Origin: a virus
Length of the DNA stretch: 10,816 nucleotides
Strand: one strand, 5' to 3'
Virus genome (UHGV): UHGV-0110205
Below are positions 6,496 to 10,816 of this stretch, piece by piece. The notes beneath the pieces were generated by a model. The model saw nothing but the letters and a program-made list of their open reading frames with translations, made no database searches and was not told where the DNA came from. The position numbers were made by a program, and so were the translations under genes. Position 1 is the stretch's first letter. Every line of letters starts with the position of its first letter.

Positions 6496-7464
6496 TTAGT
6501 AGGTTATTTTTGTTGCGAATACTTCGCCTTTTACGATGGCTGTTATGATATTTTTAGCAACATCTTCTGATGCGCCAACCTTGATAAGGTCAGCAAGTAT
6601 TTTGTTATTTACTTCTTTCCGGTGAGCTTTATCCTTTGCTCTACGCTCTTCTTCTTCCTTGATTCTTTTTTCTTCTGCTATTCTGGCTTGCTCTTTTGCT
6701 TCAGCATCGCGACGGATTCGTTCAGCCTCCTCCTGTGCTTTTCTGCGTTCTGCTTCAATTGCTGCCTGCTTTTCTCTTTCAGCTCGTTCTGCTGCCTCTT
6801 TTGCTTCGCGCTGTGCTCGCTGCTCGGCTTCAATGCGTTCACGCTCTGCACGTTCCGCTGCGGCCTTAGCTTCTGCTTCTCGCCTTGCTGCTGCTTCAAT
6901 TTCGTCTTTTGCCTTTGCTTCGGCTTCTGCTCTGGCTTTCTCTTCAGCTTCTCTTTTTAAGCGTTCTTCATGCTCTCGCTTTTCCTGCTCCGCTTTGAGT
7001 CTTGCCTCTTCTCTTTGGCGGTCAAATTCGCGATCCATCAAAATAGCTATTTCATGGTCAGACTCAATTTGCTTTGCGAGAGCTTCAGCTGCTGCCTTAG
7101 CTTCTTCTTCGGCTTTAATCCGCGCCTGTTCTTCCTCATAATCAGTAAGAGGCTGGCGTGCCTTGGCTTTCAGCTCATCAAGGCGATCACGCACTGTCTT
7201 GCGGTTGGCATCAATTAGCTTTGGAATTTCCTTCAGTTCAGCCACAAGGTCTTTGCCAAGACCATCGAGATATGTTTTCGTCTGCGCAACTTTATACGCC
7301 AGAGAAGCGATCTCCTTTCTGCCCTTTGCCGTTGTGATATCAGGCACAAAGGACATAACTTCACGTTCAACCTTTTGAAGGATTTCTTCAATCTGGTCGG
7401 CAGACTGAAATACAGTCATTGCATTTGATTTTTCAATAACAACTAAATCTGTTACTTCACTCAT
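6496..7464 (-). CDS. 322-aa protein with long E/R/A/K-rich predicted alpha-helical (coiled-coil or single-helix) central domain; function unknown
   Basis: GGAGGA 3-4 nt upstream of ATG 7464. Globular N-terminus (~110 aa), ~170-aa low-complexity charged segment (EEARLKAEQEKREHEERLKREAEEKARAEAEAKAK...), short C-terminal domain. Coding strand fixed by operon context. Confidence 0.85.
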   Translation of the reverse strand: MSEVTDLVVIEKSNAMTVFQSADQIEEILQKVEREVMSFVPDITTAKGRKEIASLAYKVAQTKTYLDGLGKDLVAELKEIPKLIDANRKTVRDRLDELKAKARQPLTDYEEEQARIKAEEEAKAAAEALAKQIESDHEIAILMDREFDRQREEARLKAEQEKREHEERLKREAEEKARAEAEAKAKDEIEAAARREAEAKAAAERAERERIEAEQRAQREAKEAAERAEREKQAAIEAERRKAQEEAERIRRDAEAKEQARIAEEKRIKEEEERRAKDKAHRKEVNNKILADLIKVGASEDVAKNIITAIVKGEVFATKITY

Positions 7465-8699: not shown

Positions 8700-9359
8700 T
8701 TAACTAAATGTCTCTTCAGGCCACTGGCTGGCGATAACTTTCCCTACTACGGAACAGCTATCATTGCATGGAATCATTGGATATTGCGGGTTTAGTGGTT
8801 GTAGAAACACCTGACCGCTATCCCTGATTAGTTTCTTGAAGGTAAACTCATCACCTCCAAGTCTGGCTATGCAGAAATCACCTGGCTCAACAGCCTGCTC
8901 AGGGTCAACCAGAATTAACATTCCGTCAGGAAAGCTTGGCTTGTAGCCTGTTGGTGCGGTCATGGAATTACCTTCAACCTCAAGCCAGAATGCAGAATCA
9001 CTGGCTTTTTTGGTTGTGCTTACCCATTTCTCCGCATCGCCTTTGGTAAAGGTTCTAAGCTCAGGCGAGAACATCCCGGCCTGAACATGAGAAAAAACAG
9101 GGTACTCATATTGTTTTTTAACGGGGGCAGATGAGTATTCGCCAACAGGTGAAAATGTACCGTCGTGGTTGAATGAGACGTTATCAATACCAAGGTATTT
9201 AAACACCACACCAATCTCGTCAAGAGATGGATGACGAGATCCGCGCAACCAGTGACCAATTCCACCCTGCGTCATACCAAGCTCTTCAGCTAACTTCTCT
9301 TGAGTTATGCCGAGCTCTTTCATTCTGGATCTAGCCAGTTCATACCATTTCATTTTCAT
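8700..9359 (-). CDS. cI: Prophage repressor, CI-like (N-terminal HTH plus C-terminal LexA-type S24 autopeptidase domain); not lambda immunity
   Basis: From ATG 9359 ([37 protein letters not shown]...): XRE-type HTH; C-terminal domain with Ala-Gly (HVQAGMF), Ser (EGNSMTAP) and Lys (FTFKKL). Start could be 9353 or 9401. Divergent from cro. Confidence 0.9.
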
Positions 9360-9368
9360 ACCCTTATT

Positions 9369-9442
9369 ATTACGCTCTGTACTAAAACCATCCATGCACA
9401 AGATGTATTTTTTGTTTGCATTCTAAAAGTACATATCGTATT
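9369..9442. promoter_or_regulatory. Candidate OR operator sites (same 15-bp motif class as OL)
   Basis: TTACgctctGTACT (9370-9383), TGCACaagatGTATT (9394-9408), AGTACatatcGTATT (9428-9442); spacings 25 and 34 bp. The last overlaps the PR spacer and -10. Confidence 0.35.
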
Positions 9443-9726: not shown

Positions 9727-9750
9727 ATCAAATTAAACCACACCTATGGT

Positions 9751-9770
9751 GTATGCATTTATTTGCATAC
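9751..9770 (+). promoter_or_regulatory. Lambda-like tR1 / cII leader region with 7-bp inverted repeat (gtatgca-N6-tgcatac)
   Basis: Sequence 9727-9805 appears identical to the lambda nutR-tR1-cII leader as recalled (ATCAAATTAAACCACACCTATGGTGTATGCATTTATTTGCATACATTCAATCAATTGTTATCTAAGGAAATACTTACAT). Confidence 0.35.
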
Positions 9771-9805
9771 ATTCAATCAATTGTTATCTAAGGAAATACT
9801 TACAT

Positions 9806-10084
9806 ATGCAACTTACAAGTACTCGCAAGAAAGCGAATGCAATTACAAGCAACATCCTGAATCGAATTGCTGTACGTGGTCAGCGAAAGGTTGCCGACGC
9901 GTTAGGGATTAATGAATCGCAAATTTCGCGATGGAAAGACAGCTTCATCCCCAAAATGGGAATGCTTCTGGCTGTTCTTGAATGGGGTGTTGAAGACGAG
10001 GAGTTGGCGGAACTGGCTAAGAAAGTAGCCAGAATGCTGACAAAAGAAAAAGCCCCGAAGAACGGCGAATTCTTCGAGGCCTAA
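9806..10084 (+). CDS. cII: CII-like transcriptional activator
   Basis: 92 aa from ATG 9806 with lambda-identical SD AAGGA; C-terminal ISRWKDSFIPKMGMLLAVLEWGVEDEELAELAKKVARMLT parallels lambda CII; N-terminus diverges. Confidence 0.85.
   Translation: MQLTSTRKKANAITSNILNRIAVRGQRKVADALGINESQISRWKDSFIPKMGMLLAVLEWGVEDEELAELAKKVARMLTKEKAPKNGEFFEA
9839..9852 (-). promoter_or_regulatory. TTGC-N6-TTGC direct repeat (candidate CII-binding site / PRE -35 region)
   Basis: Minus strand reads TTGCttgtaaTTGC, inside the 5' end of cII as in lambda PRE. Distance to the lambda-like -10 (AAGTAT near 9790-9800) is longer than in lambda. Confidence 0.25.
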
Positions 10085-10108
10085 TGTAGAAAGACTGGAT
10101 CAATCCAC
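10042..10108 (-). ncRNA. oop: OOP-like antisense RNA (candidate) with pO -10 and intrinsic terminator overlapping the cII 3' end
   Basis: Minus strand has TGtCATAAT extended -10 (revcomp of 10116-10124); 5' region GTGGATTGATCCAGT resembles lambda OOP GTTGATAGATCCAGT as recalled; hairpin cgaagaa/ttcttcg (10056-10076) then cuuuuucuuuug. Confidence 0.45.
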
Positions 10109-10118
10109 AGGAGTAATT

Positions 10119-10286
10119 ATGACAAAACGTCGTAAGAAATACCAGGAAAAAGAAGAGATTCGACACCCTGATTCACCTGAGGGATTAGTGGTAGCCGCAG
10201 CAAATAACAGGGCGTTCGCAGAGCGCCTTGTTGGTGTTTACAGACTAGCCAAAGCAGGAGTGAAACATGGGCGTCGTTAAGTTAGC
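10119..10286 (+). CDS. Candidate 55-aa ORF starting at the lambda-O-like start codon context
   Basis: CAGGAG 5 nt upstream of ATG 10119 (AGGAGTaATTATGACAAA matches the lambda O start context); MTKRRKKYQEKEEIRHPDSPEGLVVAAANNRAFAERLVGVYRLAKAGGETWASLS. Overlaps the rep gene start by 19 nt. Confidence 0.3.
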
Positions 10287-10816
10287 TGATTACAGGCATA
10301 ACCCTGTACAACATCAGGAGGCATCCAGTATGGGGTATGTCTCTATACACCGCCAGTTTATGGACAGCAGGCTCTATAAGGACTCTCAGGCAGTACATCT
10401 TTGGCTTCACTTAATCCTCAAGGCTAATCACGAATCTACTGTCGTCAATACGGATATCGGTCCGATAACTGTTGATCGCGGTCAGATGATAACTGGACGC
10501 CCGTCGCTGGTCAGAGAAACATTCATCCCCGACAACAAAGTTCGGAGCTTATTACGGACTTTTGAGTCGAAAGGGATGCTTAATATTTGCTCGATGGGGA
10601 AGAAATTTAGCCTGTTTACAATCGTTAAATATGACGATTTTCAGGCAAAAAATTGTCCAACGGTTGTCCAACGGTTGTCCAACGCAAACACCAGTAATGG
10701 CGCGGCTCTCAGCGGAGATTGTCCAACGGTTGTCCAACGGTTGTCCATAAACAATAATATAAATAATATCTCTAATACTGACGTATTAGAGAGTGCCACA
10801 GCAGATAAAAAGTCTG
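10268..10816 (+). CDS. O-like replication initiator, N-terminal part (runs off window end); contains ori iterons
   Basis: Open frame from ATG 10268 (AGGAGG 6 nt upstream) to window end, 183 codons, no stop. Alternative start ATG 10331 also has an SD. Missing from ORF track because it has no stop. Confidence 0.8.
10654..10790 (+). repeat. Replication origin: six 11-bp direct iterons (TTGTCCAACGG) in two triplets plus AT-rich region
   Basis: Iterons at 10654, 10665, 10676, 10720, 10731 and 10742 (last degenerate TTGTCCATAAA), separated by a 33-bp spacer, followed by aaacaataatataaataatatctctaatact. Lambda-ori-like architecture inside the initiator gene. Confidence 0.7.

Follow-up and report, generated by a model that had tools for sequence, protein, structure and literature searches.

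An 11-bp iteron array within a G38P-type initiator gene as the putative replication origin of HK022/Sf6-type lambdoid phages, with an adjoining conserved palindrome

Introduction

Close to the right-hand end of a 10,816-nt stretch of the UHGV virus genome UHGV-0110205 (hereafter the window, meaning the whole stretch analyzed), a predicted replication gene contains a block of short tandem repeats followed by AT-rich DNA. Is this block an origin of replication, how far would such an origin extend, and what kind of initiator would read it? The first-pass annotation had proposed an origin of classic architecture inside an O gene, with a distinct iteron sequence. The window comes from a mosaic lambdoid phage or prophage, of which it represents the int-to-replication segment, and encodes an integrase (45-1205), a cI-type repressor (8700-9401) and a cII protein (9746-10084), and the best single phage record covers at most 53% of its length. 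Translation from an ATG at 10267 identified the 5' part of the initiator gene (10267-10816, plus strand, 183 codons), which runs off the window end. Over its whole length, this 183-aa fragment shows no difference from residues 1-183 of the O protein of phage HK75, which has 296 aa in full. In HK75, a 478-aa DnaB-family helicase (TIGR03600, E=5e-175) directly follows the initiator, its start overlapping the initiator gene; as the window stops inside the initiator gene, the helicase is seen in near-identical relatives only. We combined a recount of the repeats with profile comparisons of the initiator and a comparison of related loci to examine what the block is and which of its parts are under selection.

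Results and discussion

Architecture of the repeat array

Recounting and Tandem Repeats Finder both recovered what had first been described, namely six repeats in two clusters separated by a 33-bp gap, with a degenerate last copy. Tandem Repeats Finder returned two arrays of period 11, both matching the consensus TTGTCCAACGG at 100%: one at 10653-10684 (2.9 copies, score 64), the other at 10719-10747 (2.6 copies, score 58). Cluster 1, delimited by repeat finders, by eye and by translation, spans 10653-10685 on the plus strand and consists of TTGTCCAACGG (10653-10663), TTGTCCAACGG (10664-10674) and TTGTCCAACGC (10675-10685, ending in CGC). Cluster 2, delimited by repeat finders and by eye, spans 10719-10751 on the same strand and consists of TTGTCCAACGG (10719-10729), TTGTCCAACGG (10730-10740) and TTGTCCATAAA (10741-10751). 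This last copy keeps 7 of 11 positions, only the TTGTCCA core, and merges into the AT-rich tract. The start had been placed at 10654, which is one base off or reflects a register shift of the unit, and is immaterial. Start-to-start distances between successive iterons are 11, 11, 44, 11 and 11 bp, and the two clusters lie 66 bp apart start to start, equal to six repeat lengths. Between them, the G+C-rich spacer (10686-10718, 33 bp) is conserved in length and variable in sequence. Reading the spacer as three further degenerate iterons was rejected, as it agrees with the unit at only ~2 of 11 positions and shows unconstrained variation among relatives.

The exact 11-mer TTGTCCAACGG occurs at four sites in the whole window, all within the array, and copies with one mismatch occur twice, once inside the array and once as a stray at 2650. 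Looser matches (≤3 mismatches, whole window) were found about as often as expected by chance (26 vs 23.2), so the signal of the array resides in its exact, clustered copies. Within the complete 36.7-kb HK75 genome, the 8-bp core TGTCCAAC occurs five times against 1.04 expected by chance, all in the array, and no second cluster of the core was detected there. A second origin comparable to oriR of phage SPP1 was rejected on the same grounds. Because the 11-bp period is not a multiple of three, the three copies per cluster are read in three frames; cluster 1 is translated as CPTVVQRLSNA (CPTV/VQRL/SNA). The repeats also generate alternative-frame open reading frames on both strands, as had been noted, at 10552-10737 (minus), 10562-10750 (plus) and 10641-10799 (minus).

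Downstream of cluster 2 lies an AT-rich tract (10747-10768), a putative DNA unwinding element with a single C in 22 nt. GC content falls to 0.20 in 10740-10779, the minimum over 9800-10816, which bears out the AT-rich DNA reported after the repeats. The right half of the region so described is, however, a perfect 10-bp inverted repeat that the first reading overlooked (see below).

Previous annotation and distribution

The block is a real and well-supported feature and is not new: it corresponds to the already annotated putative origin of HK022/Sf6-type lambdoid phages. The last 717 bp of the window (10100-10816) are 99.3-99.6% identical to HK75, HK106, mEp234, IME10, HK629 and Sf6, with 99.6% to HK75 and 99.3% (717 bp) to Sf6. 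The Sf6 record carries a rep_origin at 28385-28480, equivalent to window positions 10652-10747, labelled as a putative, lambda-origin-like repeat region similar to HK620; the HK620 record has a two-part rep_origin in its O gene, and the phage L record annotates the block as a putative origin of replication (gene 18). In phage L, the likely origin was described as six imprecise 11-bp repeats TGTCCAACGGA, of the form TGTCCAACGG, inside the initiator gene (PMC8022706, 2020). The unit TGTCCAACGGA is the same 11-mer as TTGTCCAACGG, shifted by one base in register. The exact string TTGTCCAACGG was absent from the searchable literature, where the unit has been printed in the other register, and we found no replication, binding or unwinding experiments on this iteron class in that literature. 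All three annotations (Sf6, HK620 and L) cover the repeats alone, leaving out the AT-rich tract and the palindrome. The origins of Sf6, HK75 and phage L show no substantive difference from that of the window. Shigella phage Sf6 (gene 43), coliphage HK620 (gene O), HK022 (gp54) and Salmonella phage L, the closest systems with a putative origin, have an initiator of the same family (phrog_345), with a DnaB-type helicase downstream. DNA bearing the array is common, being present in 371 of 5426 complete Escherichia coli genomes, 151 phage records and 385 viral contigs.

The number of iterons varies between alleles. A protein search recovered initiators of 274, 296 and 318 aa, which correspond to 3, 6 and 9 iterons at the DNA level; one length differs from the next by exactly 66 bp, a step that disturbs neither the reading frame nor the 11-bp phase. 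The 3-iteron allele examined, with one cluster, comes from Shigella flexneri 8401; next to it, an IS4 element has taken the place of the immunity region, so this prophage is probably defective. The 9-iteron allele is found in an intact-looking cI-cro-cII-initiator-helicase context.

Family assignment of the initiator

The initiator had been called an O protein. In the PHROGs database, HK75 O indeed matches the 'replication initiation O-like' entry phrog_345 at E=4.8e-85 and, less strongly, entries for a 'DnaD-like helicase loader'; no match was found in Pfam, in NCBIfam (above threshold) or among PDB sequences. Whereas lambda O and P22 gp18 match PF04492 (Phage_rep_O) with E-values of about 1e-36 to 1e-38, the full-length initiator has no match to this family at E≤1, and the lambda O N-domain did not match our family profile (hhalign). 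The first reading was right in placing the origin in the initiator gene and in finding the iteron unlike that of lambda, but the term 'O gene' holds by analogy only, as the N-domain does not belong to PF04492.

A profile built from 41 family sequences instead aligned residues 19-129 with residues 1-114 of SPP1 G38P (hhalign probability 98.75%, E=1.5e-16), a relationship also detected by tblastn (27.9% identity, E=1e-5). The G38P-type N-domain family PF09681 was hit by 3 of the 41 members, the window-type initiator not among them. The C-domain, in turn, has a homologue in the C-domain of P22 gp18 (hhalign 94%). The possibility of a distant lambda O homologue was considered and rejected: for the N-domain it is unsupported, and the C-terminal match is weak (probability 37%) and can be attributed to those members of the alignment whose C-domain is lambda-O-like and whose partner protein is lambda-P-like, such as that of Erwinia phage Ehr59. 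In an AlphaFold2 model, based on a shallow alignment of 12 sequences that are 68-86% identical, the N-domain has pLDDT values below 50, the C-domain is confidently predicted and the origin-encoded residues 122-188 lack secondary structure; a Foldseek search of this model against PDB returned nothing at E below 0.1. On these comparisons, the initiator is composed of a G38P-type N-domain, predicted to bind DNA, and a P22-gp18-type C-domain. Residues ~19-129 would form the origin-recognition domain and residues ~129-190 a linker encoded by the origin DNA.

Conserved layout and iteron specificity across related loci

A scan of viral contigs with a single protein returned only loci that were 99-100% identical, useless for covariation. 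We obtained 51 diverse prophage loci from a one-genome-per-species contig scan with the family alignment; together with annotated phage loci, 54 could be anchored on the conserved KYD(D/E)(F/Y)Q motif that closes the N-domain. Most of them (47/54) fit a layout of 3 × 11 + 33 + 3 × 11 bp at a fixed offset from the motif. The common template places the first unit 26-28 nt past the motif, followed after its cluster by the 33-bp spacer, three further units, the AT-rich tract and the palindrome. This layout is conserved while the unit sequence changes, with at least seven iteron types such as TTACCAGCA, TGCCAACA and TGTCCAGCC. The type TTGTCCAACGG is shared by the window, Sf6, L and ENT47670. HK620 and VT2-Sakai carry TTACCAGCA(G/A)A; many Klebsiella, Yersinia and Pantoea prophages carry (G/A/T)TGCCAACA(G/A)A, and CobraSix carries (G/A)TGTCCAGCC. 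Further types include AATCCAA(A/G)GGA, TTGTCCGG and others, as well as CGACACCCTAC in Glaciecola and AACAAATGAGC in Prevotella, the latter in ~10 tandem units.

Third codon positions in loci of the same iteron type were 86-100% identical inside the iterons compared with 28-58% in the N-domain. Iterons were still conserved at 31 of 33 positions where spacer identity dropped to 12 of 33, and the AT-rich tract was conserved at 21 of 21 positions in most loci of the same type. Frozen third positions, together with a period of 11 bp, indicate selection on the DNA and not on the peptide.

Iteron similarity tracked N-domain identity (Spearman r=0.70, Mantel p=0.0002) and was unrelated to C-domain identity (r=-0.05, Mantel p=0.84). 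N- and C-domain identities were themselves unlinked (r=-0.04), and the domains reassort freely. HK620 and VT2-Sakai share the C-domain and the palindrome but differ in the N-domain and in their iterons; between HK75 and HK620, the C-domains are 98% and the N-domains 51% identical. Conversely, locus L094 combines an HK75-type iteron and N-domain (88-91% identical to the HK75-type loci L092 and L093) with a CobraSix-type C-domain and palindrome, and the mosaic junction between domain types, from L094 compared with HK75, falls in the AT-rich tract. Erwinia phage Ehr59 keeps the N-domain and iterons with a different C-domain and a lambda-P-like partner, while Pectobacterium phage ZF40 keeps the C-domain and DnaB-type partner with an HTH_36/DnaD_N N-domain and another repeat pattern. 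These patterns agree with the classical modular picture, in which the N-domain would read the origin and the C-domain would recruit the helicase system.

The iterons adjoin the N-domain coding sequence, and part of their co-variation could be linkage; the C-domain coding sequence is equally close and shows no co-variation.

A conserved palindrome at the downstream edge

Directly after the AT-rich tract, a repeat finder located a perfect palindrome of 10+4+10 nt at 10769-10792, TCTCTAATAC-TGAC-GTATTAGAGA, with arms at 10769-10778 and 10783-10792 and TGAC as the loop. On either strand, the predicted DNA hairpin has a folding energy of -7.5 kcal/mol (z=-5.8). Every anchorable locus carries a palindrome whose loop is 4 nt long, at a nearly fixed distance from the anchor motif. 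Its arms are 9-10 bp long and perfect in all but two loci, the exceptions being Glaciecola with arms of 6 bp and Prevotella with arms of 4 bp. The arms come in at least 17 different sequences; what related loci keep is the structure and not the sequence. Across 24 distinct sequences, double changes were found at 10 of 10 arm pairs, and 95.4% of cells were paired, compared with 59.1% after shuffling and 28-45% when the partner position was slid. The loop follows the consensus T(A/G)A(C/A). Its first T, which falls on the third position of ACN, TCN, CCN, GGN or GAY codons, is invariant (52/52 loci); with a synonymous position held constant in this way, the loop sequence is itself constrained.

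Could the palindrome serve leftward transcription, as an intrinsic terminator or some other RNA hairpin, instead of being an element of the origin DNA? On the minus strand, TATTATTTAT comes directly after the hairpin, a consensus scan flags a weak leftward intrinsic terminator, and the phage L record has predicted minus-strand terminators just to the right of its rep_origin. The stem is weak, however, with three G-C pairs in ten, no leftward promoter is known downstream, and Rfam gave no significant match in the region, its two weak hits (E=0.43 and 0.93) lying outside the origin at chance level. The 24 sequences moreover contain no one-sided (G-U type) changes in arm pairs on either strand, which would be unusual for an RNA helix and is expected for DNA, so that a constraint at the DNA level fits better. 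Terminators do not need a conserved loop, least of all at a synonymous position, and both lambda and P22 keep a palindrome at the same place. We therefore consider a terminator unlikely, and prefer the reading in which the palindrome would form a hairpin or cruciform upon opening of the neighbouring AT-rich tract. The conserved palindrome very probably belongs to the origin, which would then reach 10792; as a whole, the origin probably runs from 10653 to 10792.

Relation to the origins of SPP1, lambda and P22

The closest parallel of known function is SPP1, in which oriL lies inside gene 38 and comprises repeats bound by G38P and an AT-rich unwinding element (PMC5737612; PMC6316719). In a reconstituted in vitro system, theta replication requires a 356-bp oriL fragment, which also suffices for it (PMC5737612; PMC6316719). 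Immediately after the motif NYEKWQ, we found five tandem 11-bp units in SPP1, AGAAACGACAG, AGAAACGACAC, GAAAAAGACAC, GAAAAAGACAC and AGAAACGGATA, and then an AT-rich tract. [quoted passage not shown] They differ in that SPP1 has a single run of five units instead of 3+3 and lacks a strong palindrome after the AT-rich tract, that the C-domain of G38P (PF09524) neither matches nor is related to that of the initiator here, and that SPP1 needs a separate loader, G39P, and has a second binding site, oriR, whereas HK75 has no loader between initiator and helicase and no second array. Judged from these comparisons, members of the family share an 11-bp tandem array placed after the coding part for the N-domain, and in one of them, SPP1, it is a proven origin.

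Lambda and P22 resemble the window in another way. Their origins, too, are embedded in the initiator gene, where they separate the coding parts of an N-domain that binds the origin and a C-domain that recruits the partner, and they follow the order of iterons, AT-rich tract and palindrome with a 4-nt loop. In lambda, the palindrome GTCAGAGAATTC-TGGC-GAATCCTCTGAC comes immediately after the AT-rich tract, and P22 has CCCCC-TAAA-GGGGG at the corresponding place. As in the near-identical relatives of the window, the P22 gp18 gene precedes a DnaB-type helicase gene, whereas lambda relies on its P loader and host DnaB. The iterons set the systems apart: lambda and P22 have four dyad-symmetric units of ~19-20 bp spaced 20-24 bp apart, in contrast to the 11-bp direct tandem repeats in 3+3 arrangement here. 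Comparison with lambdoid origin types thus upheld the claim of a distinct iteron. Since lambda, P22 and the window share the order of parts, the succession of iterons, AT-rich tract and palindrome is common to lambdoid origins with unrelated initiator N-domains.

Proposed mechanism and alternatives

We propose, with a probability of roughly 0.85, that the array is the vegetative (theta) origin of a lambdoid phage or prophage with a replication module of the HK022 gp54, Sf6 gp43 or phage L gp18 type. This reading, argued from comparison and homology, agrees with the existing annotation of near-identical DNA and with all comparative tests that we ran. The N-domain of the initiator would bind the six 11-bp direct repeats, as suggested by its homology to G38P and by the co-variation of iterons and N-domain. 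With repeats one helical turn apart and clusters 66 bp apart, the geometry is such that the bound proteins could lie on one face of the DNA and assemble into a higher-order complex. By analogy with the lambda origin and SPP1 oriL, this complex would melt the adjacent AT-rich tract in negatively supercoiled DNA. Once the tract opens, the palindrome may fold into hairpins or a cruciform that stabilizes the bubble or marks an entry point; this is the weakest step of the scheme, suggested by the conservation of the structure. The C-domain, given the modularity of the domains, would then recruit the DnaB-family helicase of the phage itself, whose gene comes directly after that of the initiator in near-identical phages. 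The origin DNA also encodes the unstructured linker between the two protein domains, and its double use as origin and linker coding sequence would explain why the repeat number changes in steps that keep the frame.

Two alternatives concern the array itself. It might bind the initiator and act as a control element, by autoregulation, by titration or handcuffing, or as a fork barrier of the kind proposed for SPP1 oriR, with initiation taking place elsewhere. Iterons have control functions in many plasmids. There is also a precedent in the family, for SPP1 G38P binds oriR as a second site, which is proposed to stall forks (PMC6316719). Yet the complete HK75 genome has no second cluster of the core, the array adjoins the lowest-GC tract and the conserved palindrome in the part order of lambda and P22, and SPP1 has its proven start site, oriL, at the homologous position. 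A control element with initiation elsewhere is therefore very unlikely, and we retain the theta origin. Hardly credible is the other alternative, a feature of the protein only, in which slippage would have duplicated a flexible linker peptide (CPTVVQRLS) that has no role as DNA: the repeats are indeed translated, with PT..Q loosely similar across relatives, the segment is predicted to be unstructured and copy number varies in frame, but selection on a peptide could not produce an 11-bp period whose three copies encode different residues, nor does it fit the conservation of synonymous iteron positions relative to the flanking domain, a spacer fixed in length with a variable peptide, co-variation of the repeat sequence with the N-domain only, or the recurrence of the 11-bp period with unrelated peptides in Glaciecola, Prevotella and SPP1.

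Implications

The array in itself matters little, being an already annotated putative origin in very common DNA. What this analysis contributes is the quantitative pairing of iterons with the N-domain, the link to SPP1 and the conserved, covarying palindrome omitted from current annotations. The comparison adds quantitative evidence for DNA-level selection on the 11-mers and for their pairing with the N-domain. The initiator is to be grouped with SPP1 G38P rather than lambda O, which makes the database label 'replication protein O' misleading, and annotated origins should be extended over the palindrome with its covarying arms.

Origins and structured origin DNA have been reported as sensing targets of anti-phage systems such as Lamassu (PMC12663957). 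More speculatively, and at well under even odds in our estimation, the palindrome could be a structure-specific origin element, a DNA hairpin or cruciform with a recognized loop 5'-T(A/G)A(C/A)-3' that arises upon opening of the unwinding element, directs helicase loading or priming, is common to lambdoid origins whatever their initiator family (TGGC in lambda, TAAA in P22) and is possibly sensed by Lamassu/DdmABC-type defences. Under the same tentative proposal, 11-bp tandem direct repeats in frame-preserving multiples would be the hallmark binding array of G38P-type initiators, in phages of Bacillus as well as in Enterobacterales, Glaciecola and Prevotella prophages. The correspondence between iteron types and N-domain types provides a specificity table that may help to predict which mosaic lambdoid and Stx phages, VT2-Sakai for instance, are compatible in replication.

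The AT-rich tract of the origin (10747-10768) is followed directly by a palindrome with a 4-nt loop at 10769-10792, and the same arrangement was found in phages lambda (locus L143, 563-590; 12-bp arms, loop TGGC) and P22 (locus L150, ~1966-1984; CCCCC-TAAA-GGGGG). Across the family of initiators with an N-domain homologous to that of SPP1 G38P, the palindrome arms covary with strict Watson-Crick pairing, and the loop T, which occupies a synonymous position, is invariant. Current records carry no annotation of this palindrome as part of the origin. The 11-bp period of the iterons is also retained in distant family members from beyond the Enterobacterales, with ~10 AACAAATGAGC units in tandem in Prevotella sp. 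oral taxon 376 and CGACACCCTAC units arranged 3+3 in a Glaciecola MAG. Both arrays are succeeded by an AT-rich tract and then by a short palindrome with the loop TAAC or TAAA.

Iteron number varies among natural initiator alleles, which carry 9 or 3 copies instead of the six present at 10653-10751. The encoded proteins are 318 aa (P0002; loci L144-L145) and 274 aa long (P0041; loci L146-L147), respectively, and the size steps between them are exact 66-bp units (22 codons). In Shigella flexneri 8401, the 3-iteron allele adjoins an IS4 transposase that stands in place of cI and cro.

Other repeats were observed elsewhere in the window. In the early-left region, a 322-aa ORF (6496-7464, minus strand) holds two tandem repeats, one of 48 bp x2 with 78% matches (6863-6957) and one of 15 bp x2.1 (6967-6996). 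In the xis/att neighbourhood, immediately upstream of the minus-strand integrase ORF (45-1205), an 11-bp unit, TCCACTGCGTA, occurs in 1.9 copies at 1343-1363.

Between cII and the initiator lies a 53-aa ORF (10119-10280, plus strand; phrog_1331), a homologue of HK022 gp53 and P22 orf48, which runs over the initiator start codon with an overlap of 14 nt and is kept at this place in phages of both initiator types. Within the 3' end of cII, a strong terminator-like hairpin of 14 pairs with a T-run was observed on the minus strand (10050-10082). In lambda, the oop RNA terminator sits at this position, which the HK629 and HK633 records label "similar to lambda oop RNA"; a match to Rfam ctRNA here is weak (E=0.43).

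Erwinia phage vB_EhrS_59 and Pectobacterium phage ZF40 are domain-swap relatives. The Erwinia phage retains the N-domain, iterons and palindrome, but its C-domain differs and the partner of its initiator is lambda-P-like. ZF40 retains the C-domain and the DnaB-type partner, but its N-domain is HTH_36/DnaD_N and its repeats differ (CCTGTGCC, at gene positions 277, 301, 343 and 367).
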